DNA of 64,000 nucleotides from Candidatus Zhuqueibacterota bacterium (lineage in GTDB: Bacteria; Zhuqueibacterota; Zhuqueibacteria; Thermofontimicrobiales; Thermofontimicrobiaceae): the NCBI GenBank assembly GCA_049322915.1, contig JBMOPW010000035.1, positions 96,001-160,000 on the forward strand, read 5' to 3'. Positions 16,723 to 64,000 of this stretch are shown here, one piece after another. The translations under genes were made by a program, and so were the position numbers. How positions within the stretch are numbered: the first letter of the stretch is position 1; each line of letters starts with the position of its first letter. The notes beneath the pieces were generated by a model, which was given only the letters and a program-made list of their open reading frames with translations, ran no database searches and had not been told where the DNA came from.

Positions 16723-16732
16723 GTCCTTTTCC

Positions 16733-46714: not shown

Positions 46715-46923
46715 CAACCTGGCCTTTTTTGCTTACCCTTTATAATTTTAATTCTCTTAACCCTCTTTCGTAGTGTGACTGTTTTAAGAATATTAAAGTT
46801 GCCCTGATCACGATCGGATGAAATCAACACCTGATCTTATTTTCCCGGCACGAAAAACTGAAATCAGCCCTAACATCTTTTTCAGCGCTGAGAATTGATG
46901 AAAATCTCTCATCCCAATTTCCC

Positions 46924-49900
46924 ATGAACACTGCACGTCATCAACATCGATCGAAACGTATTGTTTGTCTGATTGTTTTGCTGCTCCTCACACAGCCGTT
47001 GACGGGGGCGAATGCCGCTAAAGAACAGTCGGACAAACTGCTGCTGATTGAGTATTACCGTCTTCTGGAACTCATGCAGGACACTCCTCCGCCGCAGAAG
47101 ATCGTTCTGCTCCATGAGTTTATGGAATCACGGGCGGATTTCGAGGATATTTACATGTATCTTTTCGATCAATACTTGCTCAGCAATTTGCTAGACGATG
47201 CAGCGGATTATTTCCAGTCGCTTCTCTCGCATGGTAAAAGCGAATCCAACTGTCTCTGGATGCTGGCGAAAATTTATGCCAGTCAGGACCAACACCATCT
47301 GGCCCGGGAAATGTATCTCAAGGGGTTGAATGCTGCCGCTCCCTCGCTGGCGCTGGCCGAAGATGCAGTCGATTATTTTTGCAGCCAGGGTCAAAGCCAG
47401 CAATTGAAGCATGTACAGGCAGGCCGGGTTTATAAGACATGCATTCTCGCATTGACCGAACTCGAGCAAGCGCGCTACCAGAAAGCGCTGTCACTTTTCA
47501 TTGACTTGAATAAAACCGGACTGCATCCGATTTTCTGTCAGTATTATTGCGGTTACTGCAATTTCAAATTAGCGCGCTATGATGACGCAGCAGCCTGCTG
47601 GCAGAATAGCCTCGACGCTTCCCGATTACAGGGCGCGTTGCGCCAGGAAGCGCTCATTCTGGTCGGGCTGGGAGCGCTCTCCTACACCCGGGGTCGCTAT
47701 TCCCACGCGTCGCATTTTCTCGAACTGGCTGAGAAAATCATCTCGCGCATCGACGATTTTCGCATCGAGGAATATGCCACCGGCCATCATGCGGAGTTCG
47801 AGCTCAGCCAGGGGAATCACGAGCGAGCGATTTCCCGATTCGAACGGGCGGCGCAACTTTCGCTATCGCTGCATGAATTCGACCATGCTGCAGCCTGGTA
47901 TCTCGGCAAAGGCCGCGCGCTGTTCAGTGCGGACAGCCTGAATGCCGTTCTCCCCTGTCTCGAAACGAGCGAACACTATGCCCGACTGAAACAGAATCCG
48001 GCAATGCTGTTGGAATTGCGAATGGAGCGCGGACGTTTCTACCATCATCTCAACCTGACCGAACTGGCAAGACATGAATTTGTCGCCGCAGTGCAGGCAG
48101 CCAGGGAATTGGACTGGCCGTGCAAACTCGAAATCGCCCTCGACCGCTATGCTGAAATGCTCATCAGGGAAAAGCGATTTCTTGAAGCGCGTCGCATCTA
48201 TGGCAACTTTGTCAACGCGATAGTTCCCGGCTCAGAACCGGGGCGATTGTCGCATATTCACTGGAAGATCGGCGAGACCTACCGGTTGCAGGATTCTCTC
48301 AGGACGGCCCGGGCACACTATAGCCAGGCGCTCGAATTCGCGCTGCGCCAGCAGGATCACAATGAGGCGGCGTTGGCCAACTTGCGTCTGGGCGATGTCC
48401 AGCTTGGGCTCCGTCATTTTGACGATGCCATTCAATTCTATAACGAAGCGCTGCTGGCCGATTTTACCACTGAGAACTGGGAATTGCAGATTGAATTGAA
48501 TATGGGCATGGGCCATGCCTATCGCGGAAAAAAGGAATTGGATCGGGCGATCATGTTCTATAACCGCGCGGCGAATGTCATCGAGGAAAACAGGGGGAAG
48601 TTGATGGCCGCCCAATTTCGGTTGGGGTACTTCAGCCGGGGCGCCAGTGTCTACGACGCGCTGATTCAGGCCTATTTCGAACGGTACCGGCAACGTCAGG
48701 ACAACACAGTGCAGGAGCGGCTTTTCCATTGCATGGAAATGAGCCGCGCGCGCGTCCTTCGGGATTTAAAAAACAATGGCGCCGCGAGGCCGGGCGCCAA
48801 TTCCGATTATCGGCGCGCGTGCGAAGAGCTGGAACGAATTCAACGCTATCTGCGGCTTCATCCCGAATCAGAGGACTCGCTGAAAACCGAACTCGAAGCG
48901 GCGCGGTACAATTCCATCAACCGCCGGCTGATGCTGATGAACAAGGCGAATGCCGAAACTCCGGCGAATGCGCTGACCCTGAATGACCTCCGCGCCGGGC
49001 TGGAGCACACGGATTTCGGATTGCTTTTCTATCACATCTCCGAATATCAGTCTTTTGTCCTGATTGTGAATCAGGACCAGGTCGTCATCCTTCCGATGGA
49101 GGTCGATGGGTCACATCTGGCGAGTCAGGTCGATTCGTTGATTTCGCCCTTCACCAACGTGACAGTCGAATCGCTGCCGGAGACCCGTTTTCGCGCGGAT
49201 ATTGCCCATCGGCTGTACACCTTGCTGATTCAACCTGCCGAAAAAAAAGTAGCGCTGAAAAACAATTTGATCATCATCCCGGATTTTCCATTGACCAGCC
49301 TGCCTTTCGAATTGCTCCTGACCAAGCTGCCTCGCTGCGCTGCCTATGCTCCAGGCGATAGCGGCGACTATGCCGATTCGTTTTTACTCCATCGCTACTC
49401 GTTCATTTACAGCCCTTCCACCTGGCTCATTGAGGACAAAGCCGGGCCAGCGCCATCGGTCCCCGGCATCTTGATTCTGGCAAATCCGACGAACGACCAT
49501 CTTCCCCATTACGATCTGTCCTCTGCAGCAAGGCCTTCGCGCTGGGCCACCGATCTGCTGCTGTTCGCGGACGAGGAAGCGCAGAATATCAAGCGGAGCG
49601 GGAAACGGGTGAAAATATTTCATCGGAACACAGCGACGCGGGATAGTCTTTTTGCCCATGCCCGGAGCTATCCGATCATCCATTTCGCCACCCATGCGTT
49701 TGTGGACAGCGTGTTCGATGCCTTTTCCGGGCTGGTATTGGCGCCGGGCGTGGACGCCGCGGATGACGGTTTGCTCATGGGCTACGAAATTGCCGATGCC
49801 CATTTGCCCTGCGAGCTGATCACGCTGAGCGCCTGCGAAACTGCCAGGGGTAACATGCTGCCTGGCGAAGGTATTCTGGGGCTCCCCCGACTATTCTTCA

Positions 49901-50256
49901 GTTCCGGAGCGCGCAACGTACTCATGACCCATTGGAACGTCGACGATAAATTCACATCCAAACTGATGCCCCGATTTTACGACTATCTACTGGAAGAGAA
50001 TCTCTCCAAATCCGAGGCTCTAAAACAGGCGCAACTTTCGCTGATTCGAGCGACGAATGAAGGGAGCCAGTTAATTTACCATCACCCTGTGTACTGGGCG
50101 TCTTTTGTGTTGTACGGCATGCCGGACATCAGCACCGATTACTTCGTGAAAAATGGGAATCTCCGTCCAACGTTGATTGTTGTTTTCGCGCTTGCCCTCC
50201 TCCTCGGTCTGCTCATTCGTTTTTCTCATAGACGTTCTTCGAAAAGCATTGCATGA
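46924..50256 (+). CDS. Exported TPR-repeat CHAT (caspase-like) protease with C-terminal membrane anchor
   Basis: Signal peptide (…LTGANA), long TPR array, E..RAR, IIPD..L..LPFELL, catalytic HFATH and LSACET, HPVYWASF, then a C-terminal TM with a basic tail. Confidence 0.92.
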   Translation: MNTARHQHRSKRIVCLIVLLLLTQPLTGANAAKEQSDKLLLIEYYRLLELMQDTPPPQKIVLLHEFMESRADFEDIYMYLFDQYLLSNLLDDAADYFQSLLSHGKSESNCLWMLAKIYASQDQHHLAREMYLKGLNAAAPSLALAEDAVDYFCSQGQSQQLKHVQAGRVYKTCILALTELEQARYQKALSLFIDLNKTGLHPIFCQYYCGYCNFKLARYDDAAACWQNSLDASRLQGALRQEALILVGLGALSYTRGRYSHASHFLELAEKIISRIDDFRIEEYATGHHAEFELSQGNHERAISRFERAAQLSLSLHEFDHAAAWYLGKGRALFSADSLNAVLPCLETSEHYARLKQNPAMLLELRMERGRFYHHLNLTELARHEFVAAVQAARELDWPCKLEIALDRYAEMLIREKRFLEARRIYGNFVNAIVPGSEPGRLSHIHWKIGETYRLQDSLRTARAHYSQALEFALRQQDHNEAALANLRLGDVQLGLRHFDDAIQFYNEALLADFTTENWELQIELNMGMGHAYRGKKELDRAIMFYNRAANVIEENRGKLMAAQFRLGYFSRGASVYDALIQAYFERYRQRQDNTVQERLFHCMEMSRARVLRDLKNNGAARPGANSDYRRACEELERIQRYLRLHPESEDSLKTELEAARYNSINRRLMLMNKANAETPANALTLNDLRAGLEHTDFGLLFYHISEYQSFVLIVNQDQVVILPMEVDGSHLASQVDSLISPFTNVTVESLPETRFRADIAHRLYTLLIQPAEKKVALKNNLIIIPDFPLTSLPFELLLTKLPRCAAYAPGDSGDYADSFLLHRYSFIYSPSTWLIEDKAGPAPSVPGILILANPTNDHLPHYDLSSAARPSRWATDLLLFADEEAQNIKRSGKRVKIFHRNTATRDSLFAHARSYPIIHFATHAFVDSVFDAFSGLVLAPGVDAADDGLLMGYEIADAHLPCELITLSACETARGNMLPGEGILGLPRLFFSSGARNVLMTHWNVDDKFTSKLMPRFYDYLLEENLSKSEALKQAQLSLIRATNEGSQLIYHHPVYWASFVLYGMPDISTDYFVKNGNLRPTLIVVFALALLLGLLIRFSHRRSSKSIA

Positions 50257-50330
50257 TAAATAGATTTTAAGTGTATCGATCCTGCCTTCGATCATCATGC
50301 ACTGCGGTGAACATTTAATTAAAAATTACC

Positions 50331-50359
50331 TTGACTTTCTAAGTTTTGTTATTTATCTT
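50331..50359 (+). promoter_or_regulatory. Sigma70-type promoter for the propeller gene
   Basis: TTGACT-N17-TATCTT. Confidence 0.5.
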
Positions 50360-50505
50360 TTTCGTAAGAATTGATATTTAAATCATCGATTCTAAAACTA
50401 ACCATTGAACATCACTTCCTTGATCCTTTCACCTGTCTATTTTTCATGACAATCCATTTTTCAGAAATAAAGTAATTATTGAGACTCATCAACAGTCCAA
50501 TTTCA

Positions 50506-53500
50506 ATGAAGATAAGAAGTCAAATATTTTTGCCTGCGGTGCTTTTGACTTTTATTTTTCAGATTCCCATCACAGCCCAGGTCGTTGTCACAACGTTCAG
50601 TGCTCCTGAAGCCATCCCCACAAATGTTGTTTTTTCCATATTCGAAGATGAAGCGCACATTCTCTGGGTCGGTACGAGTGGCGGATTAGGCCAGTATCAC
50701 GAAAATAACTGGGCTCAGTTGACAGAAAGTAATTCTCCGCTCATCAATAACCATGTGAAAGCGATTATACAGGATCATAACGGATACCTTTGGTTTGGAA
50801 CTGACCATGGCCTCAGTCAATATTACCAGGGAGCGTGGCAGAATTTCACCTATGCCGAGATGTCCGCTGACCCAAAATTCGACCAGATCACCTCGCTTTA
50901 TCTGGATTCCCGGAGTAAGCTTTGGATCGGCAGCAAGGAGGGCGGCGTTGTGAAACGATCCGGCAGCGGTTCATGGACCTATTACAGTCCGGCAGATGCC
51001 GGGTTCGGCGACGATATGATTACAGCGATATGCGAGGACAATAACAATCGTATCTGGTTTGGCACCGGGCATTCAGGAATCGTTGTTTTTGATCGCGAAT
51101 CTGAATGGTCCCGTCTTCAGGCACAGCCAGAAATAGGCGATGAGATACATCTGATCTATAAAGATAACCTGGATACATTATGGGTGAACACGGAAATCGG
51201 GCTGGCCCGGACATTCGATGGCATCGCCTGGAATTCGACCGGACTGGAAATGGTTCACGATGCCAGCGCTATTGCCGAAGACCAGGAGGGCAATATCTGG
51301 CTGGCCACTGAAAATGGCGAGCTGTTCCTTTATAATCGATACGAATGTAAAAAATCTGATGTACAATTCGACCAGGCCATTTGGTCGCTTCACCTGGATC
51401 ATGCGGGCTACCTTTGGGCGGCAACCAACGGCGGCGGCGTGAGTCGTTTGCATATCAACTGGCGGACGTTTCTTCAGGATTATATTATTTCGGACATCGA
51501 CGAGGATACCAGCGGTACATTATGGATTGGCACCGCTCGAAATGGAATAGCCAAATACGACGGGTCTGAATTTCAGATGATACAGGTGAAGAGCGATCTG
51601 ATACGAAAGGATTTTGTCAATTCCATTTTAGCCGATCATGAGAATCGGATCTGGTGCGGAACGAGGAGCGGTGTTTTCAGCTATGACCAGGATACATCGT
51701 GGCATGCTTATGGGGAGCCTGAGTTGCCCAATGTCATTGTAAACACAATTTTTCAGGACACACATAATCATCTATGGTTTGGCACATTGGGCGGCGCCAG
51801 CCGATTTGATGGCACTGACTGGCAAACATTTGATCGTGAACAGGGCCTGCCGGATACCAACGTGAAGGCAATCTGGGAGGACCATAAGGGGCACATCTGG
51901 TTTGGCACAGCCAATGGCGGCGCCTGCGAATTGAAACTGGATTCAGTGATCGCCATCTATAACATTGGAAATCAACTTTCCAGCAATAATGTTTCCGCGA
52001 TCCTTCAGGATAAAACGAACAACTACTGGTTTGGCACAAAAGATGGCTTACATCGATCGGACAGTTCGAAGGTTACATGGAGTCATTTTACAAAAGAGAG
52101 TAGCGGATTAGTCGACAACGACATAAAGACCCTGTTCGTTGATGATTACAACAACGTATGGGTTGGAACCTCTGCAGGCGGACTCTGCAAATTTGATGGA
52201 CAGTTCTGGTGGGATTTTAACAAATATTTGAGTGCTGATGAAGTGAACGCTGTTTTTCAGGATGCATCAAAAAATTACTGGTTTGGCACACCCATTGGAC
52301 TGGTTAAATATAGCGCGGATAAACTTGCCCCGAATACCTACATAACCATTGCTCCATCCTGCACGATCGGCGTGGCCTCGGCGATGTTTGCGTTCATTGG
52401 TGATGACAATGAAACTCCAAAAGAAAAGCTGGTTTTTAGCTGGGATTTGCAGTTGAAAAGTGAATTTGATGTGCACAACTGGTCTGATTACAGCGACCGG
52501 AATTATTGTTATATTGGTCCGCTTGGGAACGGCAACTATACTTTTTCTGTGAAAGCCCGCGATTCTGCCGGCAACGAGGATCATAAACCGGCGCAGTTCG
52601 ATTCCTTTACTGTGGATATAACGCCGCCTCAAACAATGTTGACTTACCCGGCGAACAATCAGAAAATTTCCGGGAAGGTGCCTGTTATCGGCGCTGTTTT
52701 CGACAATTCGCCCATCCGGGATTTTAAAATGTACCAATTGGATTACGCCAGAATCGATTCAGCCCGGGAGATTCAGGCGTTGGAATGGGTGAAAATTTAT
52801 CAGGATACAATCCCTTCCGATACCAATAAGACGCTATTCGAATGGGATACAGCAGATGTCGGGTATGGTCGTTATTCTCTCCGGCTATCTGCAGCAGATT
52901 ACCTGGAGCACAGGAGTGAATATCGGGTGGACGTGACGATTGTGGAATGTTTAACCGAGGTATCCAACAATTCCGGGTCGTCAATGATTGGTTCCTCGAA
53001 GCGGATTCAGCTTTATATTCCGCCCGGGGCGCTTCCGAAGGACATGATGGTTCATTTTTCACCGGTTGATACTTCGGACAAAAATAAAATCCCTGTTCCT
53101 CCGAACGATCACGTGAAATATTCTTCACTGGCCTATGAACTTGGGCCCAAAGACCTGAGTCTTTCTAAACCAGCCATCCTCGGTTTTCAGTACAATGATT
53201 CGGAAATTTCGTCTCTGCATGAAAAAAAGCTGTCGATCATGTTTGCCGATTCTACCGGTGAATATGAAATCCTGGGAGGATCCGTGGATTCAGATCAAAA
53301 TACAATCAGCACAGCGATAAAGAAAATGGGAGTCTATATTCTAATTGAAGATAATACATCAGCCCGTGCAAAGTCCAATATTTCAGACGTGAACTGTCAG
53401 CCGCGCATTTTTTCACCCAGGGGTAGCGGCTTTGCTGAAACTACGACTATTTTGTTCAAACTCTCCGCGCCTTCAAAAGTAAATGTGAAAGTCTATAACC

Positions 53501-53688
53501 TGGCTGGGCGGTTGGTCAAACAGCTACTGGAAAATGAATTATTGAATGCCAATTATAATACTGTCGAGTGGGACGGCCGCGATTACAATGGCGACATCTG
53601 TCCCAGCGATTTGTATATCATTACGATAGAAAGCGGAACTGGATTAAAAACAAAAACAGTGATGGTTCTGGATAAAGAAATTAAATGA
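50506..53688 (+). CDS. Secreted double beta-propeller (two-component-regulator propeller) protein with Ig-like domains and C-terminal FlgD-Ig domain
   Basis: Signal peptide and about 14 'D..G.LW.GT..G' repeats. YYY/Ig-like segment (G.YTFSVKARD.AGN), ZU5-like 'IPPGAL', tail FSP.G…VYNLAGRLV…WDGRD. No kinase domain or TM segment. Confidence 0.9.
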   Translation: MKIRSQIFLPAVLLTFIFQIPITAQVVVTTFSAPEAIPTNVVFSIFEDEAHILWVGTSGGLGQYHENNWAQLTESNSPLINNHVKAIIQDHNGYLWFGTDHGLSQYYQGAWQNFTYAEMSADPKFDQITSLYLDSRSKLWIGSKEGGVVKRSGSGSWTYYSPADAGFGDDMITAICEDNNNRIWFGTGHSGIVVFDRESEWSRLQAQPEIGDEIHLIYKDNLDTLWVNTEIGLARTFDGIAWNSTGLEMVHDASAIAEDQEGNIWLATENGELFLYNRYECKKSDVQFDQAIWSLHLDHAGYLWAATNGGGVSRLHINWRTFLQDYIISDIDEDTSGTLWIGTARNGIAKYDGSEFQMIQVKSDLIRKDFVNSILADHENRIWCGTRSGVFSYDQDTSWHAYGEPELPNVIVNTIFQDTHNHLWFGTLGGASRFDGTDWQTFDREQGLPDTNVKAIWEDHKGHIWFGTANGGACELKLDSVIAIYNIGNQLSSNNVSAILQDKTNNYWFGTKDGLHRSDSSKVTWSHFTKESSGLVDNDIKTLFVDDYNNVWVGTSAGGLCKFDGQFWWDFNKYLSADEVNAVFQDASKNYWFGTPIGLVKYSADKLAPNTYITIAPSCTIGVASAMFAFIGDDNETPKEKLVFSWDLQLKSEFDVHNWSDYSDRNYCYIGPLGNGNYTFSVKARDSAGNEDHKPAQFDSFTVDITPPQTMLTYPANNQKISGKVPVIGAVFDNSPIRDFKMYQLDYARIDSAREIQALEWVKIYQDTIPSDTNKTLFEWDTADVGYGRYSLRLSAADYLEHRSEYRVDVTIVECLTEVSNNSGSSMIGSSKRIQLYIPPGALPKDMMVHFSPVDTSDKNKIPVPPNDHVKYSSLAYELGPKDLSLSKPAILGFQYNDSEISSLHEKKLSIMFADSTGEYEILGGSVDSDQNTISTAIKKMGVYILIEDNTSARAKSNISDVNCQPRIFSPRGSGFAETTTILFKLSAPSKVNVKVYNLAGRLVKQLLENELLNANYNTVEWDGRDYNGDICPSDLYIITIESGTGLKTKTVMVLDKEIK

Positions 53689-53880
53689 AACGACGGCCAT
53701 AGAAAAACTTTTTATTCATTAATCTTTACTGTTTAGCCGCATGATCGCGACGGGTAATTATCCGGCGAGGGGAATGGATTGAAACGGATGTTCCCGAATT
53801 AATGCATCGTTCGGAATGAATATCTCAATCGATCTGTAAATTTCATAAAAATAACCGTCATTTAAAAAGGAGGCTTATCG

Positions 53881-55887
53881 ATGAACCTTTTGAACTTACA
53901 ATTCGTCCGACCATTGAAAATATTCGGCTGGCTTGGAACGTTGCTAATGATCCTCATTCTTCTTCCTGATGTTTCAGAATCGACTCAAAAAAGCAGCAGC
54001 GACTGTTTTTTCATCCCGCAAAACACCAGCATCATAGAGATACCAAAAGAGTTTGGCGGCGATGCATGGAAGAATGCGAACTGGTTCACTTTCGGTACGA
54101 CAGGCCATCCTGAGGTTGATGTTTTAGGCAAATATCAACTTGATAGCGAATCAAAAGTGGAGTCATTATTTTTGGCATTTCATATCCGGCACGATGCAAT
54201 TCCACATGAAAATGACATGCTGACGATTTGTTTCGATCCCGACAATACGGGTATCCCGTCTGCGGGCAATGTCCTGACCCGATACGACATTTTCCCTCAT
54301 CCACTCCAAACGAGCTATTCTTATTGTCGAGAAACTAATAGTTCAGGTGATTTGATGTGGAAAGCGCCTGATCAGGTTCCGCCACCCGATTTTATCCAGA
54401 CTATTGCCAACTGGGATATTGTAAATAATACATGGCAAGCTGAAATCACAATCGATTGCCAGGCTTTCGACCTGACCGGTGATGAGGTTGGTTCATTCGG
54501 TCTTTATTTTCAGGTACTGGATTTCATCAATGACGATTACACGTTCGCCCGCTATCATTGGCCTGTCTCTGCCCATGCCGATGAAGCTGATCCGGATTAT
54601 ATTCCTCCAGCCACTGAATGGGCACGTGGACATTTCATCAATTCTTCATCAAATATTATTCCTGATTATTACCTGAATTATTGGGATTTACAGGTCAACA
54701 ATTCAGGTGCAGCGTTTGAGATTCAACTTGGTGCGGAAAATAGTTTCAGCACAAAAGTGCGTAACGTATTTATAGAAGATGCCTGGAGTGGTGATCCTGT
54801 TATGGGGACAGTCACATTTAAAATGGCCAAATTTGGAGCAGCTTGTTATTCTGAACACTATTCTGCCAATGCTACCATAGTAACACCGCCGGAAGATGTT
54901 GACGTTTATGCGACACGCACGAGCAACGGCTCCGGCAAGCAGACGATCACCTTACGAGGCGATTTAACCTGTGATCAGGACGCGATTACGAGCAACAATA
55001 GTATGGTTCGCAATATGAAGTATTTGCCGACGATAGAAGGAAAGACATTTAAAATGTCCGTCACCATTGCCAATTGTTTATCGGATGAAGCGATTTACTC
55101 AACGTCTGAAAAAGAAGATGCGACTCCCCCTACCATGTCTCCCCTCTATGCGTCAGCATCGCCGATGATGCCCCAGGATGACAGAGAGACATTTTTTCTT
55201 TATCTTGATCGGTCTGAATTGGACACATCAAAATTACGAGACGAATGGGACGTCACATTCATACCCGCCGAAAACGACAGTGGTTTCCTGCTTCCAGTTC
55301 CGGATTCAAGTCATAAAGATTTATACACGGTACTGCTTCGCCCCGGGGATTCGACAAAATTTCAGATTCAGGTGACGGCTCCAAATTATAAAGGGTCATC
55401 CGCAGGAAGTTTGCCGCTGTTGCAGGGGCTGTTTCATATCCACGCACAAAATGCGAAGGCAGCATCAGTTGCTATGTCGAATCAGGCAATCGCACTTCCG
55501 CCTGATAAACTGATGCCATTACTATGGCTGAGCCGAAGTAATTTTCAAAAGTTATTCCCGCGGGGCGTAGTTTCCGGTTTGAAGGTGAAAGTCTATAAAC
55601 ACAAAGACGTGGTTTTCAAAGACAGGAAATCATATTTCTTAATGAATGTCCTGAATAATTTCGGCGCGTATGTCGAAGTGATGCCAAAACCGGCTCCGCA
55701 CTGGAAATTCATCATCATTATTTTTACCATTGGCTTGCTCTATGTTTTTTATATTTGCTTTAAATCCTGGAAAAAGAGAAAATGGGATTTTTTGAAAGTG
55801 ATTCTTAATGTGATACTGGTGATTGACGCTGGTTTGATCGGTTACTTCGTATGGATGGTGCGGCAGTTTTTTAACCTGGGATTGTGA
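53881..55887 (+). CDS. Hypothetical exported protein, possible DOMON/CBM9-like N-domain, two C-terminal TM helices
   Basis: SD AGGAGG and N-terminal hydrophobic segment. 'LFLAF…D…D.LTICFDPDN…WQAEITI' resembles the CBM9/DOMON fold. Two hydrophobic helices at the C-terminus. Confidence 0.75.
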   Translation: MNLLNLQFVRPLKIFGWLGTLLMILILLPDVSESTQKSSSDCFFIPQNTSIIEIPKEFGGDAWKNANWFTFGTTGHPEVDVLGKYQLDSESKVESLFLAFHIRHDAIPHENDMLTICFDPDNTGIPSAGNVLTRYDIFPHPLQTSYSYCRETNSSGDLMWKAPDQVPPPDFIQTIANWDIVNNTWQAEITIDCQAFDLTGDEVGSFGLYFQVLDFINDDYTFARYHWPVSAHADEADPDYIPPATEWARGHFINSSSNIIPDYYLNYWDLQVNNSGAAFEIQLGAENSFSTKVRNVFIEDAWSGDPVMGTVTFKMAKFGAACYSEHYSANATIVTPPEDVDVYATRTSNGSGKQTITLRGDLTCDQDAITSNNSMVRNMKYLPTIEGKTFKMSVTIANCLSDEAIYSTSEKEDATPPTMSPLYASASPMMPQDDRETFFLYLDRSELDTSKLRDEWDVTFIPAENDSGFLLPVPDSSHKDLYTVLLRPGDSTKFQIQVTAPNYKGSSAGSLPLLQGLFHIHAQNAKAASVAMSNQAIALPPDKLMPLLWLSRSNFQKLFPRGVVSGLKVKVYKHKDVVFKDRKSYFLMNVLNNFGAYVEVMPKPAPHWKFIIIIFTIGLLYVFYICFKSWKKRKWDFLKVILNVILVIDAGLIGYFVWMVRQFFNLGL

Positions 55888-55890
55888 AAT

Positions 55891-56260: not shown

Positions 56261-56430
56261 TACTTACCTGAATAAAAATCCTGTTATGCGAATAGCCGGA
56301 GGTCACCCGAAGTTTAAAATTAAAATACCGGTGCCATTGCTCAGAACAATTGCATCGGAGAAAGACGATGCTACACGTTAACGCGCAACGCGTAAAATTC
56401 ATATCCCCTGGAATAAGGAAGGTTTGAAAA

Positions 56431-58977
56431 ATGAGAAATCTTTTTAAATTCCTTACCATTGTTTTAATCGCCGGCTCCGCCAATTCATTGGTTGCCCAGG
56501 AAATGTTCACACGAATACGCAACCAGGAGGTTGTCGGCGCTCGCCCCATGGCCCTCGGTGGGGCATTCGTCGCCCTGGCGGATGACATCAATGCAATTTA
56601 CTGGAATCCTGCCGGCCTGCCGGCCGTGAATCAATTGGGGCTAAATTTCATGTACGCCAATCTCTACGGGACCGGTATCGGAAATAATTATTTCTCCCTT
56701 TGCATTCCGGGGCCGCCCGGGTTAAGTTTTGGCCTCGATTGGATGAGCATCGGTTTCATGGATGAGGAGCTTGAATTCGAAAAAAATAAATTCAACTTTT
56801 CCGCCGGTTACCAGGTTTATGACTGGCTGGCAATTGGATTAAATGCCAGATACCTGCGCATGAACGCTTCCGCCTATCAACTCTCCCAGGGCTCGTTCCA
56901 CGGATGGGGATTCGATTGGGGGTTCATGGCTCGTCTTAACAAGAATTTGAAACTGGGACTGGTTATTCATGATCTCACCGATACAAAGTTGAATGGATTA
57001 GCAGCGCCGGTTTACAGGAGAAGCGTTCGATTCGGCGCAGCTTATAAATTGTTGGATAACCTGGCCTTCCTTTCCGATCTGGATGACCGTTTCCACCTGG
57101 GAACCGAATGGTGGCCCATTTCTGAATTATTGGCGCTAAGAGCCGGAGTCGAGCAGGATTTATATACCAACGAAACAGCAACCATGTCGTTCGGCGTAGG
57201 ACTGGAACTGCCTATCTGGGGACAGTCCTTGCGGCTGGATTACGCCTATATGAATTCTCCAACCTTAATGAGCACGCATCGCACTTCGGTATCATTCCTG
57301 ATCGATCTTTTTCCCCAACTGGTAAAAATTGAAAAGGTGGAAATCGAACCCATTTATGCGTCCCTGTATAAACATCATGCCCATAACCCTGTTGGGACAG
57401 CGTATGTGCGTTATAAGGGCAAGAAAGACCTGAAATGCAAGATCAATTTTTCAGGAAACCGGTACATGAAGGAACACACCAAAAATATCATCCTTCATCC
57501 CAAACCCGGCTCTGAGAATGTGCAGGAAATTTCACTGTACACCGTGTTCGAAGATTCAGTTTTATATGAAACTGACAGCATCCCTTTAAACGCGGACGTG
57601 AAAATTTCCTATGTCAATCGATATCGCCCCTGCAAAGACAGCCTCAGTCAGGAATTCAAGCTTTACAAAAGGAACCTGGTCAACTGGGAGCTTGGGGTTG
57701 ATCAAGCCGCGGCGTTCGTGACCCATGAAGACCCGGTCATCGAGCAATTTGCCCTGGCCGCTCTTTCCGATGGCGCTGTTTCGAAACAACCGTTCATTAT
57801 AAATGAGCAGACGACAAAAGCGCTGTTTTTGTTTAACGCGGTGTCCGGCCATGGCATTCAATACGATGAAGACGCCCAGCCTGTGGAAGGCAACGCCCGG
57901 CTCGGGTTAGACGATATCTGTTACCCGGTGCAGACGCTCAAGGACAGGCGCGGCGATTGTGATGATCTTTCGGTCCTGTTAGCTTCCTTATTTGAAAATC
58001 GAAATATCCCCGTTGCCTTCGTCGATTTTGGGGAGCACATTTCCGTCATTTTCAGCACAGGGGAACACCAGGGTTTGGCATCCAACCTGCCCTATCCCGA
58101 TGATTTATTTTTTCAATATCAAAATGAACTCTGGATTCCCCTGGAAGTGACCTGGATCGATTCGACTTTTTTTCGGGCATGGCAAAAAGGCGCTGCCGAA
58201 ATCACAAAAATCTTTGGGGAGGAGCAATATCGTGTGATTGAAATTCGTAAAGCATGGAATGAATACCAGCCGGTGAACTATGTCAGTCGATTTTTCAGGC
58301 CCATGCCCCTGGCTCAATCCCATTATATTGCATTAAAACAGGATGAGCCAATTCAGCTTAAAACAAATCATCTTTTTAATCTGGAACAGAAGATCACGCT
58401 TCATCCGGACAGCCTGGAATTGCGCAATCAATTAGCCATCAAATATGCCTTTGATAACCAGCGGGATAAAGCCAGAACTCATTTTCAACACATACTTGCC
58501 AGGGATTCGAATAATTTTTCAGCGATAAACAATCTCGGCAATTTATTTATTCTCGAAGGAAGAATAGACTCAGCCGAGACATTTTACCTGAAAGCTCAAC
58601 AATACGCACAAAATTCGGATCAGGTTGATGGCGTGAAATTGAACCTGGGATTGGTATACCTGGCAATCGGCCAGGATAGCCTTGCCATTGATGCGTTCTC
58701 CGAAGTGATGGAACATGAAGAGAACTTACAGAGAATTGCCGACCTGCTGAAGATCAATTTCAATCAGGAAGACTATTCCAAAGGCGATGACGCAAAGCCG
58801 AAAAAACCGGTTTCTAAAAATAGTGTTAAACAGATTTCTGCAAAGGCTAAAACTGAACTCAATGATAAATCTTCCAAGCCGAAAGAGCAGACAAAGCAAA
58901 CGCGGCGTCAGGCCGTGCGAAAAGGAAGTTACCTGGCTCCTGAAAAAATCGACAATGTCTTTTATTGGGCGGAATGA
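56431..58977 (+). CDS. PorV/FadL-like beta-barrel fused to a transglutaminase-like domain and TPRs
   Basis: Signal peptide, GARPMALGGAFVALADD..AIYWNPAGL barrel motif ending in LDYAY…HR.S. Then GDCDDLSVL…H…WIPLE.T and TPRs (AINNLGNL, NLGLVY). Confidence 0.85.
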   Translation: MRNLFKFLTIVLIAGSANSLVAQEMFTRIRNQEVVGARPMALGGAFVALADDINAIYWNPAGLPAVNQLGLNFMYANLYGTGIGNNYFSLCIPGPPGLSFGLDWMSIGFMDEELEFEKNKFNFSAGYQVYDWLAIGLNARYLRMNASAYQLSQGSFHGWGFDWGFMARLNKNLKLGLVIHDLTDTKLNGLAAPVYRRSVRFGAAYKLLDNLAFLSDLDDRFHLGTEWWPISELLALRAGVEQDLYTNETATMSFGVGLELPIWGQSLRLDYAYMNSPTLMSTHRTSVSFLIDLFPQLVKIEKVEIEPIYASLYKHHAHNPVGTAYVRYKGKKDLKCKINFSGNRYMKEHTKNIILHPKPGSENVQEISLYTVFEDSVLYETDSIPLNADVKISYVNRYRPCKDSLSQEFKLYKRNLVNWELGVDQAAAFVTHEDPVIEQFALAALSDGAVSKQPFIINEQTTKALFLFNAVSGHGIQYDEDAQPVEGNARLGLDDICYPVQTLKDRRGDCDDLSVLLASLFENRNIPVAFVDFGEHISVIFSTGEHQGLASNLPYPDDLFFQYQNELWIPLEVTWIDSTFFRAWQKGAAEITKIFGEEQYRVIEIRKAWNEYQPVNYVSRFFRPMPLAQSHYIALKQDEPIQLKTNHLFNLEQKITLHPDSLELRNQLAIKYAFDNQRDKARTHFQHILARDSNNFSAINNLGNLFILEGRIDSAETFYLKAQQYAQNSDQVDGVKLNLGLVYLAIGQDSLAIDAFSEVMEHEENLQRIADLLKINFNQEDYSKGDDAKPKKPVSKNSVKQISAKAKTELNDKSSKPKEQTKQTRRQAVRKGSYLAPEKIDNVFYWAE

Positions 58978-59003
58978 ATTTAGCAGAGTAGAACGGACCC
59001 GGT

Positions 59004-61943
59004 ATGAATGTTTCCCAGTTTACATCGAAGCACATCATCATTGCTGCCTGTATTTGCATGTGCATCGCAGCTTGTCTTGGTTTGCTTTTTGAAAATGTAA
59101 CTTATTTTTATGGCCTCGATGCTGATCTGCTGGACTACCTGATTTTCAAAAATAACAGCCGCAAGCCGTCGGACAAATTATCCCTCATTGTGATTGATGA
59201 TGAAAGCGTCCGTGAATTCGATGACGATAAATCTGCACTCCGCGATCAATATACTTATCTGATACAAAAATTATCGTCGTTCGGAGCTCGTTCCATCGCC
59301 TTTGACCTTTTTTTTGGTGATGGTTCAGAACCGTCAACGGACGCCCGCCTTGCCTTTGTGACAGATTCGACGCGAAAAGTGATTCACAGTTTTTATTTTC
59401 CGGAAAACGGGCCAGGCGGCGAGTATGATTCACTAATAGAATATCAAAAATACGCCATCGAAATCCGGAATGAAAATTACCTGGATATCATCGAGGTGGA
59501 TTATGCCACTTTTCCCAACGCAAATTTTATTGACGCCTTTGATTATGCCGGTTTTGTTTCGTATGAATGCGATAAGGACGGGGCAACCCGGCGCATGCCC
59601 CTGATTTACAAATTTAACGGATTGATTTACCCCTCGTTAACCCTGGCGGCCATGTTCCATTACAATGATATGCAGGTGAAATCCATTCGTATCGAGCGCG
59701 GGACCTGGGGTTTTCAAATGATTATTGATGTGCCGAACAGCCCTGTTCGCATACCAGTGGATAACAAGGGCCAGGCAATGCTGAATTACTATGGGACGTT
59801 CCAGCTCTTCTCCCATCACCCACTTCATAAAACGATTAAACTATTGCAATCAATTCAATGGAACAATGGTTTGGATACGTCGATGCTTCCTTTTCATGAT
59901 CACATTGTTCTGTTTGGAAACACCGAACTCAATGAAGGCGACAGCCATAATACACCCTTTTCGGTTGATTTCCCCGGAGTTGGTCTCCACGCAACGCTGA
60001 TCAGCAATATCCTGAATCATGACTTCCTGGTTGAAGCTCCCTGGTACATCAATTTTCTTGTCACACTGATTTTGCTCATTTTTCTATTTTGTTCCTTCAG
60101 CTATTATTTGAAACATTCAAAATCACAGCTATTCTTTTCTTTCCTCTCGCTCGCCCCGCTGCTGGTGCTAAATTCAGCTTACTATTTTTTTATATTCAAC
60201 AACACAGGAATCTGGCTGAAATTATTTCAGGTGAATTCGATTTTTATGGTTCTGTTTTTCTTCCTGTTATTTTTCGAAAAAATAATTCATCTCAAAAAAT
60301 TGAACCGGGAGATTTCAGATCTGGAAGAAAAACTCCGGAATAAATCCATCGATCTGGACAAAGTCAATGAGCAAGTGCGATTTCAATCGGAGCAATTAAA
60401 GATTGTCACCTATTTTGCCAATGAATTGCGCAATACCTATTCGAGTACCTCGCCGGATGGAACAGAAGTGAAGGATGAATTTATCGGTCACCTGCTGGAA
60501 AATGAAAACATTTTGAAACAGCAGATCGATGCGGAATTGCAGCGGTATAAAATTGAAAAACAGATCCTCGATGCGGAGCTTTTGCAATTGAGAGCGGAGC
60601 GTCAGGCGTTTTTGAACAGGAATATCGAGGTCGAAAAAGTTGGAAAGCAGCCGCCGAGCAACCCGGATAAAACCATACGCTTTCAAAATATCCTGTCATA
60701 TTTGGATTATTTTTATTCCCAGTTGAGATCAGGTCGCCTTAATCAACAGGTCACTATGGGCATCATAGCCGTTCCTTTCTTGAAGACCGAAACCTGTGAA
60801 TTGATGAAAACAGAAATGGGCGAATTATTTGATGAAATAAAAACGATCAGTGCTTTTAAAACGACTGCTCTGATCAATGGCGAGTCCGGCACAGGGAAAG
60901 AACTCATCGCCGATGCAATTCACGAGCAAAGTTCGTTAAAAAACAAGAGAATGGTAAAACTGGATTGCGGTGCAATTCCGGAAACACTCTTGGAGAGCGA
61001 ATTGTTCGGGCATACCAAGGGCGCTTACAGTGGCGCCCACACGGATCGCAAAGGCGCATTTCTTACAGCAGACGGCAGCACCATATTTTTGGACGAAATT
61101 GGCGAGTTGAAATTGGACTTGCAGGCGAAACTGCTTCGCGTAATTCAGGAAAAGACAATCAAAAAAGTAGGCGCTGATACGCCAATTCAGGTTGATGTAA
61201 GAATTATTGCAGCGACGAACCGGGATTTAGCAACAGCCGTGCAAAAAGGTGAGTTTCGCCAGGACTTGTATTATCGCCTCAATGTCGTGAATTTGAAAAT
61301 CCCGCCGCTGAGACAGAGAAGATGGGATGTTCCGTTCCTGATCCATTTCTTTTTATCTCAATATAGTGACAGGTATGGCGAAAAAAAATCCTTTACCGAC
61401 GAAGCGTATAACGCGGCCATGTGTTACGACTGGCCCGGGAATATCAGGGAACTGCAAAATCTAATTGAAAAACTCTACGTCACGTGCCCCAAACAGTTGA
61501 TTGACTTATCTGATTTGACGCCATCGATCCAGACTACCTATCGAGAAATAATGGCAACCGGTGACCAGGCGTGTTGGCATCATATTGGAGATATGGTTCA
61601 AAAAGAAAAAGACCGGTTGCTCGATCTCTGTAAATCTTCCTTAAGATCGAAAAAAGCAAAAACGACTTTTATGCCGTCGGGAATGAATCTGGATGAAGAG
61701 ACAAATTGTTATGACGCCCTGGCATGCTATGTCGATCAACTGGCCACGCTATTCCCACCAGTGAAAAAAGAAGCGCTGGTTCGTTCTGCCATTGTTCAGA
61801 TGCAGGAAGAATTATTTAAATGCTGCCATCAGGAAAAAATTGGGAAATTAAACGAATTGTACCCAGTCATTGAAAAAATTTTAGGCCGCAGTCGGCGCCA
61901 GATTGATAATTGGCGGGGTGATTTGAGTGAAAATTCTGATTAA
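59004..61943 (+). CDS. Membrane-bound CHASE2 sensor fused to a sigma54 AAA+ activator
   Basis: TM, CHASE2 (LIVIDD…IAFDLFF…D.DG..RR.PL…PGVGLHA..I.NIL), 3 TM and a coiled coil. Then GESGTGKE, ESELFGH.KGAYSGA, FLDEIG, RIIAATN, WPGNIREL and a divergent C-terminal HTH. Confidence 0.92.
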   Translation: MNVSQFTSKHIIIAACICMCIAACLGLLFENVTYFYGLDADLLDYLIFKNNSRKPSDKLSLIVIDDESVREFDDDKSALRDQYTYLIQKLSSFGARSIAFDLFFGDGSEPSTDARLAFVTDSTRKVIHSFYFPENGPGGEYDSLIEYQKYAIEIRNENYLDIIEVDYATFPNANFIDAFDYAGFVSYECDKDGATRRMPLIYKFNGLIYPSLTLAAMFHYNDMQVKSIRIERGTWGFQMIIDVPNSPVRIPVDNKGQAMLNYYGTFQLFSHHPLHKTIKLLQSIQWNNGLDTSMLPFHDHIVLFGNTELNEGDSHNTPFSVDFPGVGLHATLISNILNHDFLVEAPWYINFLVTLILLIFLFCSFSYYLKHSKSQLFFSFLSLAPLLVLNSAYYFFIFNNTGIWLKLFQVNSIFMVLFFFLLFFEKIIHLKKLNREISDLEEKLRNKSIDLDKVNEQVRFQSEQLKIVTYFANELRNTYSSTSPDGTEVKDEFIGHLLENENILKQQIDAELQRYKIEKQILDAELLQLRAERQAFLNRNIEVEKVGKQPPSNPDKTIRFQNILSYLDYFYSQLRSGRLNQQVTMGIIAVPFLKTETCELMKTEMGELFDEIKTISAFKTTALINGESGTGKELIADAIHEQSSLKNKRMVKLDCGAIPETLLESELFGHTKGAYSGAHTDRKGAFLTADGSTIFLDEIGELKLDLQAKLLRVIQEKTIKKVGADTPIQVDVRIIAATNRDLATAVQKGEFRQDLYYRLNVVNLKIPPLRQRRWDVPFLIHFFLSQYSDRYGEKKSFTDEAYNAAMCYDWPGNIRELQNLIEKLYVTCPKQLIDLSDLTPSIQTTYREIMATGDQACWHHIGDMVQKEKDRLLDLCKSSLRSKKAKTTFMPSGMNLDEETNCYDALACYVDQLATLFPPVKKEALVRSAIVQMQEELFKCCHQEKIGKLNELYPVIEKILGRSRRQIDNWRGDLSENSD

Positions 61944-61948
61944 TCCAT

Positions 61949-61990
61949 TAAAATTTGGAAATGCTTCCCGGTGAAAATTTCCAAATTTTA
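61949..61990. promoter_or_regulatory. Putative upstream activator sequence (14-bp inverted repeat)
   Basis: TAAAATTTGGAAAT-N14-ATTTCCAAATTTTA. The half-site AAATTTGGAAAT recurs at 62085-62096. Confidence 0.55.
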
Positions 61991-62203
61991 TTTACTCCAT
62001 ATAAAATCCGTCCCGTTTCCTTCCACCGTATTCCCTTTAATTTTATTGAATTAGTAACGTACCAATATAAAATTCTTTCCCATGAAATTTGGAAATCTCC
62101 TGTTTCCACGCAAATAAAATTCCGCACAACAAATTTTTCTCTTATCCAGTTAATTGCCAATTTATTAACAAATTACATCCTTCAAAAATTTGCAGAAAAG
62201 AAG

Positions 62204-62220
62204 TTGGCACAGCCTTTGAA
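62204..62220 (+). promoter_or_regulatory. Sigma54 (-24/-12) promoter
   Basis: TTGGCAC-AGCCT-TTGAA versus the consensus TGGCAC-N5-TTGCW (one mismatch). Lies just downstream of a sigma54 activator gene. Confidence 0.65.
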
Positions 62221-62445
62221 TGAGCCTGATGCGAACATCGCTGATAAATGAAAAGACATCAGACAACAAAGTAGCTATCATTAACGATGATGTTCACGCT
62301 CTTTCGAAATTTATTTAACTCACCCGAATGTTGCAGACTAATTAGAATGGATCGAGTGTCGGGTCAGCCTATTCGCAAAATGGTTCGGCGCTTGTTCCGG
62401 CAACATTCAAAAAATTCTTCATCATTATTTTATTGGAGGTGTATC

Positions 62446-63150
62446 ATGGATACATTCGTTAACCCGATTCCAGGAATCAAACTGGAAAAAATGTTTGCTT
62501 TCGATTTTCCTCTGGGGTCTACTTCTAAGGATTATCAAACTCCCGGATGCAAGCGGAATGTGGATTTGAACAATCCGAATGGCCAGGGCGAAACCCCAAC
62601 ATCTGAGGTTCCAACTCAGGAAGGTATTTATGGCAAGTTGGGCAATCCCAAACGTCACCAGGGATTTCCCTCTGTTATGGAATGGCCCACTCCTGAAGCC
62701 GAAGATCCTGATATGCAAGACCAGATCGTGGATATCGACCGCGAAGCCTGCTTTGACCACACCGGTCGACTGAGCGGCTCGTTCGTGAAATACCTGGTTC
62801 AGGCAAATCATCATTCCAACGTCAAAATGACGGTTGTTCCGTTAACCCATGGAAATGGAAGCCCTGTATTAATTTGGGAGTCTGGTTTTGTGGCTCTTGT
62901 ACCGCAGGCGGCTGGTCCGAATAAGTGGTACTGGGAAGACATTGCCAAGCAGAATGAATTAATTTTCACTGCCCACGCTGTGATCAATCCGCAAAAATGG
63001 CAGTCCCTGAATTTGAAACCGGGCATCTACAAACTGGTTATCAACTGGGAATTTTGGGCAGCCACCGGAAAAGTCAGAGAGAGAATGCCTATTTCCGGAT
63101 TCGATGAATCAGTATCGTTCGAACTCTCTGCTCCGACAATCGATCTGTAA
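62446..63150 (+). CDS. Hypothetical cytoplasmic protein (234 aa), putative sigma54 target
   Basis: Strong SD GGAGG before MDTFVNP, no signal peptide, beta-rich C-terminal half. Confidence 0.75.
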   Translation: MDTFVNPIPGIKLEKMFAFDFPLGSTSKDYQTPGCKRNVDLNNPNGQGETPTSEVPTQEGIYGKLGNPKRHQGFPSVMEWPTPEAEDPDMQDQIVDIDREACFDHTGRLSGSFVKYLVQANHHSNVKMTVVPLTHGNGSPVLIWESGFVALVPQAAGPNKWYWEDIAKQNELIFTAHAVINPQKWQSLNLKPGIYKLVINWEFWAATGKVRERMPISGFDESVSFELSAPTIDL

Positions 63151-63210
63151 AAAAGTGTTCCCATTCTCCCAATCCAGGGTTGATTGTGACGTTTAGTACC
63201 CAAACCAAAT

Positions 63211-63251
63211 ACGGCCATCCATTTCTCCCGATCCGGGCTATGGATGGCCGT
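63211..63251. terminator. Hairpin between convergent genes
   Basis: 11-bp stem ACGGCCATCCA/TGGATGGCCGT. Confidence 0.55.
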
Positions 63252-63294
63252 CTTAATTTCGAGTCTTCATCACATGAAATTGTGATAAAACAGG

Positions 63295-63519
63295 CTAATT
63301 CAAATTGGTGTAAATGTCCTGGTATTCGGCGGGCGCGTAACGTCCGGTATGATTAACATTCCTCTTTGCATTACGAATGATCACTTGACCGTTACGCCAG
63401 TTTTCCCGAAGTTCATAATTGCAGCGAGGGCAGGTGTAAATAATCCAATCACCATCCCGGGTGGAATCACACGTATGTCTTTCCGGAACAGATGAGGAGC
63501 CATTGTTAAATTCTGTCAT
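63295..63519 (-). CDS. Small protein with possible zinc ribbon (H.C…CPRC…H)
   Basis: 74 aa, SD GAGGTG, YTCPRCNYE motif. Confidence 0.6.
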   Translation of the reverse strand: MTEFNNGSSSVPERHTCDSTRDGDWIIYTCPRCNYELRENWRNGQVIIRNAKRNVNHTGRYAPAEYQDIYTNLN

Positions 63520-63741
63520 TTTCCACCTCTACTGGTTACTAGTACAGAGTTCTTCACCCAATTATAGCGCATTCCATCCGAGCGTCGAATGCTGAATGCG
63601 CTCTTAAAGACAAGTTAACTTCACATACGCATTTGGTCGTGTCGCTATGGTTCAAAAATTATATCCACGCTTGTTCAATATAATAGATATTTTTTTACTA
63701 AAAATCAAATACTATTTTTGTAATAATAAAGGAATTATATT

Positions 63742-64000
63742 ATGACAGAACATAATATCGCTCCGAAAAACTGGGCTCTGACCTATCGCGCTCTGAACAG
63801 GGCGTTGACTCACTATTCAAACGATCCTGATATTTCCCTCATCGATGTGGGATTTCGGATTCGCACTTCAAATGAAAATCAAATTCTGCCGGAGTTAGCA
63901 GTGAGATTTCATGTCAAAAAGAAGTTGACTGGCGGGGAATTCAGAAATCTGGTGATGCATTTTCCCCATCGGGAGATTGACGCGAACAGGATAGGTTTTG
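63742..64000 (+). CDS. Partial ORF running off the window; resembles the N-terminal region of Nal1-type trypsin-like proteases
   Basis: AAGGA SD, then MTEHNIAPKNW…DPDISLIDVGFRIR…ELAVRFHVKKK with no stop before the window end. Absent from the ORF track because it is truncated. Confidence 0.55.
   Translation, partial: MTEHNIAPKNWALTYRALNRALTHYSNDPDISLIDVGFRIRTSNENQILPELAVRFHVKKKLTGGEFRNLVMHFPHREIDANRIGF

Follow-up and report, generated by a model that had tools for sequence, protein, structure and literature searches.

A recurrent propeller, barrel-enzyme and CHASE2 gene core in a Zhuqueibacterota genome: a candidate envelope-spanning sensory module with a sigma-54 output

Do the large, co-oriented genes at the downstream end of a 64 000-nucleotide stretch of DNA from Candidatus Zhuqueibacterota bacterium form one route from the cell surface to sigma-54? 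The stretch (the window) covers positions 96001–160000 of contig C35 in an assembly of 6.25 Mb and 45 contigs. A preliminary description, made from the letters alone, had read its gene products as lying in successive compartments and proposed a relay without a kinase, possibly involving proteolysis, that ends in an enhancer-like palindrome and a −24/−12 promoter. Gene content was established from an open reading frame (ORF) listing combined with Pfam and NCBIfam scans, and transmembrane (TM) and signal segments were located by a simple hydropathy scan. All six large genes (g1 to g6) were recovered where that description had placed them, all on the forward strand, and the N-termini of g1–g4 are signal-like. 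Below, L numbers denote loci, G numbers genomes and C numbers contigs of the source genome. Three of the genes form a core that recurs across genomes: g2 (a secreted β-propeller), g4 (a PorV-like barrel with an enzyme-like arm) and g5 (a CHASE2 sensor fused to a sigma-54 ATPase).

The conserved core: propeller, barrel-enzyme protein and CHASE2 sensor

The linkage of g2, g4 and g5 is solid. We collected 56 homologues of g4, the named ones originating from candidate division KSB1 and Latescibacteria, and scanned loci in one genome per species with 10-kb flanks, keeping the best 80 of 144 confirmed loci; the first g4 alignment was too diverse as a query and the second was used. A locus was counted as g4-type (n = 29) if tblastn of the window proteins found both the barrel and the enzyme-like middle part. 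Such loci are spread over KSB1, Eisenbacteria, Zixibacteria and a ‘Caldithrix sp.’ metagenome-assembled genome (MAG). A propeller homologue lies upstream on the same strand, at up to 2.6 kb, in 24 of the 26 g4-type loci that have at least 1.5 kb of upstream sequence (within 400 nucleotides in 20), and tblastn placed a CHASE2 homologue within 3 kb downstream in 22 of the 26 with at least 2.5 kb on that side. Two further CHASE2 neighbours, one detected by Pfam only (L028) and one divergent and upstream (L006), bring the latter total to 24 of 26; the two loci without one are L011, which has a WD40-caspase protein in its place, and L025. Several g4-type loci share one MAG and the relatives are not independent, so separate events are fewer than these counts suggest. 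The 37 loci that matched the barrel only (plain PorV-like proteins) served as a control: CHASE2 adjoined none of the 26 that were assessable and a propeller only two of 33, one of these two (L032) being cut by a contig end. The upstream cargo varies, with Reg_prop repeats in most loci, FG-GAP in L025 and, in L023, an additional CBM9 protein, all of it bearing tails for the secretion system of type IX (T9SS).

The same pairing is seen within the source genome, where about 40 PorV-like barrels were matched and the enzyme-like domain is present in only two of them, namely g4 and a 531-amino-acid protein on C1; both genes adjoin the only two CHASE2–sigma54 fusions among four CHASE2 genes. Only 26 nucleotides separate g4 from g5 (10 in L008, while the genes overlap in L007). 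The preliminary description had named recurrence of its components in other genomes as the check on its relay: this recurrence was found for the propeller, the barrel-transglutaminase protein and CHASE2, and it failed for a separate CHAT gene, tblastn with the CHAT domain of g1 having found none in the 29 g4-type loci.

The propeller protein g2 (50479–53688, + strand, likely start 50506) was assigned by Pfam and NCBIfam. It contains Reg_prop repeats (193.7 bits) arranged as a double propeller, a ZU5 domain (32.9 bits), an Ig-like domain and a C-terminal T9SS type A sorting domain, and this tail scores above the curated cut-offs of both TIGR04183 (26.9 bits; cut-off 23) and FlgD_ig PF13860 (27.2 bits; cut-off 27), in agreement with the secreted, FlgD-tailed double propeller read earlier from the sequence. 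Its build resembles that of PorZ, with a score of 117.1 bits against the PorZ equivalog NF052228, under the cut-off of 260. The T9SS of the source genome is represented by two PorU proteins (868.7 and 818.5 bits; cut-off 420), one SprA_N match (145.5 bits; cut-off 27) and many ORFs that bear T9SS tails. The two PorU genes lie side by side on C7, and the roughly 40 PorV/PorQ-like barrel matches of this single genome are separate from one another and measure about 320–440 amino acids. The ZU5-like domain of g2 also contains the tripeptide HFS (window positions 53054–53062; residue 850 from the likely start), which is the autocleavage site of some eukaryotic ZU5 domains; a self-cleavage model was dropped because HFS is not conserved in 15 relatives.

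The barrel-enzyme protein g4 (56431–58977, + strand) was characterized by NCBIfam, Pfam, an AlphaFold2 model and Foldseek. It scores 78.3 bits against the PorV/PorQ family NF033709, under the cut-off of 90. The model, built from 29 sequences with a mean predicted local distance difference test (pLDDT) of 85.8, comprises a barrel (residues ~69–291), a β-sandwich (298–418), an α/β enzyme-like domain (423–610) and an array of tetratricopeptide repeats (TPRs; 639–773), that is, about 550 residues past the barrel that end in TPRs. The barrel has the 14-strand FadL-type fold of PorV (Foldseek 6h3i_F, TMt 0.65, root-mean-square deviation 4.2; 8gl6_F, TMt 0.61), and FadL-family and PorV barrels dominate the match list of the whole model. 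In the enzyme-like domain a Cys-His-acid triad occurs in the order C510 (GDCDD), H536 and E572 (W-x-P-x-E-x-T), invariant in 29 and in 14 aligned sequences. Transglut_core PF01841 matches g4 with 17.3 bits, under its cut-off of 23, and the C1 paralogue with 23.1 bits, and 12 of 14 family members match it weakly (E up to 0.1; best 1.6e-5). The four families returned for this domain include PF01841, PF04473 and PF13369, with no other peptidase family among them, and a search of its profile against PDB sequences gave no match at E up to 1. The earlier assignment of a PorV-like barrel joined to a Cys-containing transglutaminase-like/TPR region is upheld. The C-terminus of g4, FYWAE (58960–58974), is conserved, with Y845 and W846 invariant in 14 sequences; this tail is modelled with high confidence, and an FYW-x-E end is also found on propeller-fused forms that have no barrel.

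These fused forms belong to a wider family. With an E threshold of 0.001 the profile of the enzyme-like domain retrieved 5,596 representatives among 1.84 billion, and with one of 1e-30 it retrieved 1,514; besides proteins of g4-like length, they include proteins of 900–1,780 amino acids. Nine of 16 long members scanned have Reg_prop and Y_Y_Y before the enzyme-like domain, two of these starting with CBM9_1, and the remaining ones have NHL or six-bladed propellers together with TPRs. Parts resembling g3 (an exported protein described below), g2 and the g4 arm can therefore be recognized in single chains, which supports a joint function. No conserved partner of the propeller-fused forms was detected among the few neighbourhoods scanned. 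Propeller-barrel fusions, which appeared as long ORFs in high-GC loci (e.g. L015), were rejected as out-of-frame extensions.

The third core gene, g5 (59004–61943, + strand; Pfam and hydropathy), encodes a CHASE2 domain (PF05226, 133.5 bits; cut-off 26.3) between TM segments (TM1 at residues 11–29 and three more at 351–428), followed by a coiled linker and a Sigma54_activat domain (PF00158, 222.6 bits) with Walker A GESGTGKE at 626 and Walker B LDEIGE at 696. The membrane-borne fusion of CHASE2 to a sigma-54 ATPase, with four TM segments, is thus as first described. At the C-terminus no Fis-type helix-turn-helix was matched by HTH_8 PF02954 at E up to 0.01; an LGRSRRQIDNW motif in the C-terminal helix is common to the activators, g5 included.

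The part of the CHASE2 protein that follows the sensor differs between loci. Pfam identified CHASE2–SpoIIE (PP2C) proteins in eight loci (L009, L010, L018, L019, L021, L027, L031 and L035), CHASE2–CHAT fusions in three g4-type loci (L023, where a separate sigma-54 activator follows, L026 and L028) and CHASE2–sigma54 proteins in L014 and L051, while tblastn identified the latter type in four more, L006–L008 among them; the CHASE2 protein of L012 has no family match over its C-terminal half. A metagenome scan added a CHASE2–CHAT fusion in L146 (identical to L147), which makes four g4-type loci with such fusions, and CHASE2-cyclases in L199 and L206, all beside the enzyme-like domain. The other two CHASE2 genes of the source genome encode cyclases. 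Judged by its domain content, the output of CHASE2 is interchangeable between a sigma-54 ATPase, a PP2C phosphatase, a CHAT protease and a cyclase.

Regulatory DNA and probable target of the sigma-54 arm

When 167 genomes of the phylum were queried with the CHASE2 part of g5, frames of about 975–1055 amino acids turned up in ten other genomes, a tally that includes G158 and G162, both left out of closer study; nine CHASE2–sigma54 loci, the window included, were examined. Directly after the g5 stop codon lies an enhancer-like palindrome, TTTGGAAAT-N14-ATTTCCAAA (61949–61990, no strand assigned), whose arms of 14 nucleotides each (61949–61962 and 61977–61990) are 100% complementary; it is unique in the 6.25-Mb genome and conserved in six other loci. 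A third TTTGGAAAT copy (62082–62096, likewise without strand) precedes by 117 nucleotides a sigma-54-type promoter, TGGCAC-N5-TTTGA (TGGCACAGCCTTTGA; 62205–62219, + strand; a −24/−12 match), the corresponding distance being 120 nucleotides in L008 and 115 in L118. The three exact 12-mers of TTTGGAAAT are the only ones in 64 kb and three of the ten in the genome. Taken by itself, the promoter motif is no more frequent in the window than chance predicts (27 matches versus 35.9 expected, allowing up to 2 mismatches), and the copy at 62205 is convincing only because it is conserved in other genomes: TGGCAY-N5-TTTGR is kept in L006, L007, L008, L051, L124 and L118. The regulatory DNA of the seven loci cannot be aligned except in four blocks, the TTTGGAAAT-N14-ATTTCCAAA palindrome, the third TTTGGAAAT, a short TTA block and TGGCAY-N5-TTTGR, so that seven genomes (the window and L006, L007, L008, L051, L118 and L124) carry three TTTGGAAAT sites plus the promoter. 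In L014 three sites and a promoter with one mismatch face that locus's own g4 operon, and in L122 neither sites nor promoter were found. Both the palindrome and the −24/−12 promoter of the preliminary description are therefore present and conserved in relatives.

The combination of an AAA+ domain, upstream sites at about 110–250 nucleotides and a −24/−12 promoter recalls activators of the NtrC/NifA class, from which g5 differs in being membrane-anchored, in its CHASE2 input, in having no receiver and no HTH_8 match, in its GAYSGA loop, and in a GA at the −12 element of its promoter.

Two genes follow the promoter, and their conservation differs. The second encodes a 637-amino-acid trypsin–SLT protein (63742–64000, continuing past the window to C35:161656; + strand), assigned from Pfam and invariant residues. 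It has an N-terminal trypsin-like domain, a hydrophobic/TM stretch and a C-terminal SLT lytic transglycosylase domain, and no signal peptide. Pfam gives only a weak Peptidase_S64 match for the N-terminal domain, which we consider trypsin-like because H153, D196 and S283 (GDSG) are invariant. A gene for a trypsin–SLT protein of 610–640 amino acids adjoins the activator or follows the promoter in seven of the nine loci (the window, L006, where it was seen in L120, L007, L008, L051, L122 and L124), and in six of the seven genomes that share sites and promoter; free copies of the trypsin-like N-terminal domain occur in L007, L122 and L124. The trypsin–SLT protein appears to be the conserved target of the sigma-54 arm, with its trypsin part predicted to be cytoplasmic and its SLT part periplasmic. 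A paper on conflict systems makes no mention of sigma-54 or SLT (PMC7159879).

The first gene, g6 (62446–63150, + strand, in an ORF open from 62287), encodes 234 amino acids from a conserved start, M54 of the open frame. L008 alone has a counterpart, 67% identical, with the Shine-Dalgarno sequence and the ATG at 62446 aligned. No Pfam or NCBIfam family and no signal peptide were found for g6; no Atlas match reached 0.9, and the pLDDT of the Atlas model was 0.36. The small no-family proteins vary between loci of the sigma-54 branch in general. Within this branch, enhancer sites, promoter and downstream protease gene thus recur in other genomes as well, and of the two genes that had been noted after the promoter, the possible protease is kept in relatives and g6 is found in one other locus only.

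A paralogous locus (L005, on C1, 3867–11376, − strand) begins with a CHASE2–sigma54 gene of 866 amino acids, followed by a TGGCAT-N5-TTGCA site, a 222-amino-acid barrel, the 531-amino-acid barrel plus Transglut_core protein and two no-family proteins. The canonical site lies at 8148, 73 nucleotides before the small barrel gene, with GCGGAAAT/ATTTCCGC repeats upstream. This locus keeps TTGCA at −12, unlike the TTTGA/TTTGG of the orthologous promoters.

Signal direction and competing readings

The reading that we favour, with confidence somewhat better than even, is that these genes make up a sensory module that spans the envelope and is coupled to a sigma-54 output, with outside-in signalling through the barrel to CHASE2. 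Such signalling via the barrel would be the most economical mechanism, and a kinase-free relay from surface to sigma-54 would fit the domain content; we infer its direction, its contacts and any proteolytic step from sequence. PorQ anchors PorZ, and g2 would likewise be exported by the T9SS and kept on the surface with its tail docked to the g4 barrel. The two termini of a 14-strand barrel face one side of the membrane, and by analogy with other outer-membrane barrels the arm of g4 (β-sandwich, thiol-enzyme-like fold and TPRs) is expected in the periplasm, where it would act on, or bind, the CHASE2 domain in g5. Events at the surface, be they a propeller ligand or barrel loading, would alter g5 such that its AAA+ domain assembles; from the three TTTGGAAAT sites, g5 would then activate the TGGCAC-N5-TTTGA promoter and turn on g6 and the trypsin–SLT membrane protein, which might remodel or break the cell wall. 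A complex prediction for g4 residues 300–848 with the g5 CHASE2 part (residues 30–348), run without controls, gave a score of 0.00 and a mark of 0.32. A bolder version, in which an active periplasmic thiol enzyme, driven by the surface propeller on its barrel in a T9SS-dependent manner, cuts or cross-links CHASE2 and so gives it a first defined, protein-borne input, outputs (sigma-54, PP2C, caspase-like or cyclase) are swapped across phyla and, in this genome, a protease–muramidase output permits controlled self-lysis or an opening of the wall upon contact at the surface, seems rather doubtful to us.

Parts of this outside-in arrangement have counterparts in described systems. In Sinorhizobium meliloti a barrel of the outer membrane, NsrA, stands upstream of CHASE2 cyclases (PMC13001267 and PMC7529298, as far as their accessible parts go). 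The NsrA–CyaK/CyaD1/CyaD2 system thus likewise needs an outer-membrane barrel for a CHASE2 response to an external protein signal; it differs in its cyclic AMP output, and those parts report no T9SS cargo, PorV-like fold or thiol-enzyme arm. The PorQ–PorZ and PorV–PorU pairs of Porphyromonas gingivalis resemble g2 and g4 in combining a double propeller and its retained tail with a PorV-family barrel, the differences being that g2 and g4 score under the family cut-offs, that g4 carries some 550 additional residues and that a CHASE2 protein, in place of a histidine kinase, is the partner. The Fec system (FecA–FecR–FecI) also joins an outer-membrane receptor, a periplasmic link, an inner-membrane transducer and an alternative-sigma promoter, whereas no TonB-dependent transducer, FecR-type anti-sigma factor or extracytoplasmic function (ECF) sigma factor is found among the Pfam and NCBIfam matches of g1–g6. 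We found no open-access paper or preprint that links CHASE2 to PorV, T9SS, transglutaminase, sigma-54 or RpoN, and no description of the combination as a whole, and the preliminary description had not recognized it as a described system either.

The CHASE2 domain is widespread, its input is stated to be unknown in the accessible part of PMC5192318, and the dedicated, conserved protein partner found here is a candidate for that input. If the favoured reading is correct, it would also imply a signalling role for type IX secretion parts outside Bacteroidota and the wiring of a single input module to outputs of four kinds. The sigma-54 branch offers a reporter with defined sites, promoter and target.

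Several observations weigh against this outside-in module. As regards the core, L153 and L178 encode barrel-bearing g4 homologues with other neighbours, and G124, a genome of the same genus, showed no g5 orthologue. The fused forms described above combine propeller and enzyme-like domain in one chain with no TM segment in the consensus, so that both share one compartment. Among 30 metagenome loci that have the enzyme-like domain and no barrel, a CHASE2 neighbour was found in one (L199), and the CHASE2 tie therefore belongs to the barrel-bearing form. As regards the sigma-54 arm, L051, L122 and L124 contain the CHASE2–sigma54 gene and the target operon with no barrel-enzyme gene in the available DNA, and L118 has only a TPR ORF ahead of the sensor; this arm can thus exist without an adjacent g2–g4 set. 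The promoter faces the sensor operon itself in L014 and L118, and in the C1 paralogous locus the barrel-enzyme gene lies downstream of a sigma-54 promoter and looks like a target. Finally, the sigma-54 loop of g5, GAYSGA at residue 673, is the most deviant of its clade (GAFTNA, GAFTHA, NAFTDA, GAFTGA and GSFTGA in relatives), and GA or GG stands in place of the usual GC at −12 of every orthologous promoter.

The position of the C1 gene under a sigma-54 promoter would suit a reversed direction, in which the thiol protease arm of g4, retained or set free by the CHASE2 protein, cuts the anchor of the propeller, controlling its shedding from inside the cell. LapD–LapG–LapA is a precedent for such inside-out control: there, under cyclic di-GMP, a cysteine protease of transglutaminase fold in the periplasm works together with an inner-membrane receptor and with a surface protein held in the outer membrane. 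A transglutaminase-like Cys-His-acid domain with invariant residues, placed beside a pore that holds a surface protein and accompanied by an inner-membrane receptor, is what the present locus has in common with it. The likeness is limited, however, since the matching peptidase family is not among the four returned for the enzyme-like domain (PF01841, PF04473 and PF13369 included), and this domain is fused to the barrel here. Moreover, sigma-54 ATPases, PP2C phosphatases and cyclases are usual outside-in outputs, none of which is a known receiver of a cytoplasmic signal, and we judge retention and release from within to be unlikely.

A sensor that monitors loading or secretion, with CHASE2 reading the loading of cargo onto the barrel or a build-up of tails in the periplasm, not an outside ligand, would account for a type A-tailed cargo encoded beside its own PorV-like barrel and for cargo that varies (Reg_prop, FG-GAP, CBM9) and is always tailed. 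A T9SS tail as the input of an inner-membrane sensor has a precedent in PorA, a T9SS cargo whose tail is the ligand of the kinase PorY according to the accessible part of PMC12152298. The large, conserved propellers of ligand-binding type and the catalytic residues of g4 would be superfluous for such a monitor, though, and in this genome a cell-wall enzyme, as opposed to T9SS genes, is the target; this reading, too, strikes us as improbable.

In a proteolytic relay of seven genes, a fuller form of what the preliminary description proposed, an exported CHAT protease, the product of g1, would be obligatory and would release the signal by cutting g3, g4 or g5. Gene g1 (46924–50256, + strand; Pfam and hydropathy) does encode an exported TPR–CHAT (caspase-like) protein (CHAT PF12770, 202.7 bits, plus TPRs) with a C-terminal TM segment at 1080–1098, and the CHAT catalytic His and Cys are invariant in six aligned sequences, g1 included. 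One of only about six CHAT loci in 6.25 Mb lies here, and a TPR–CHAT protein is encoded beside the activator in three of the nine CHASE2–sigma54 loci, the window, L122 and L124 (the latter two in genomes G159 and G161). These two proteins share 25% identity with g1 and have no C-terminal anchor, however, and g1 homologues are missing from six of the nine CHASE2–sigma54 loci as well as from every one of the 29 g4-type genome loci. In the CHASE2–CHAT fusions of four g4-type loci, the CHAT domain follows the TM segments and is thus cytoplasmic, whereas g1 is exported. An obligatory CHAT step is therefore distinctly improbable. Fusions of metacaspases to CHASE2 in cyanobacteria are mentioned in the accessible part of PMC2853523. 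Caspase-like proteases are, on their distribution among the loci, best described as recurrent accessories or outputs and not as a fixed step.

That an ordinary T9SS cargo-carrier pair merely happens to adjoin an unrelated sigma-54 regulator would agree with the gaps of 192–543 nucleotides among g1–g4 and with scans for sigma-70 promoters and terminators that stayed at chance level, so that operon structure cannot be derived from them, but given the co-occurrence counts against controls, the pairing of both copies in the source genome and the tight or overlapping g4–g5 junctions, chance is extremely improbable.

Accessory and neighbouring genes

Between g2 and g4, g3 (53881–55887, + strand; hydropathy and AlphaFold2) encodes an exported all-β protein with two C-terminal TM segments. 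Together with the single C-terminal TM segment of g1, this accounts for the two exported, membrane-anchored proteins, one of them a CHAT protease, that had been read from the sequence. No Pfam family of its own was found for g3, and a search of 5.8 billion clusters returned four homologues besides itself; among the loci it occurs only in L006–L008. Two of eight g3 homologues match CBM9_1. The AlphaFold2 model (pLDDT 61.6) gave mostly generic β-sandwich matches in Foldseek, with the CBM9 structure 7nwn at rank 50 (TMt 0.52), and the N-terminal domain is probably CBM9/DOMON-like. We regard g1 and g3, from their distribution, as lineage-specific accessories and not as parts of the core.

The gap between g3 and g4 (55888–56430) measures 543 nucleotides, and 275–713 in relatives, where g2–g3 and g4–g5 are tightly spaced, unlike g3–g4. 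No Rfam match was found in this gap, nor anywhere in 46000–64000, at E up to 0.1. In L007 a Type ISP restriction-modification enzyme (553–3726) stands where the window has g1.

Elsewhere in the window, 15373–18118 (− strand) encodes a pair of a histidine kinase and a receiver-type sigma-54 activator, one of about 40 sigma-54 activator matches in the genome, and 18585–20762 (− strand) a second CHASE2 protein, an adenylate/guanylate cyclase fusion of 725 amino acids with dapF-like and lysA-like neighbours. Past the window end, L004 (3935–12684) encodes a bacterial α-2-macroglobulin (1876 amino acids) and then a PBP1c-type penicillin-binding protein, a known gene pair.

Another CHASE2 gene lies on C26 (L087, 7413–16933, + strand), in the order FecR-domain protein, 844-amino-acid no-family protein, CHASE2-cyclase and a 1269-amino-acid PKD/Big_9 (Ig-repeat) protein with a T9SS tail. 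A FecR-domain gene beside a CHASE2 gene is also seen in the Burkholderia operon of PMC5192318, whose products, according to the accessible part of that paper, include both a FecR-domain protein and a CHASE2 kinase.

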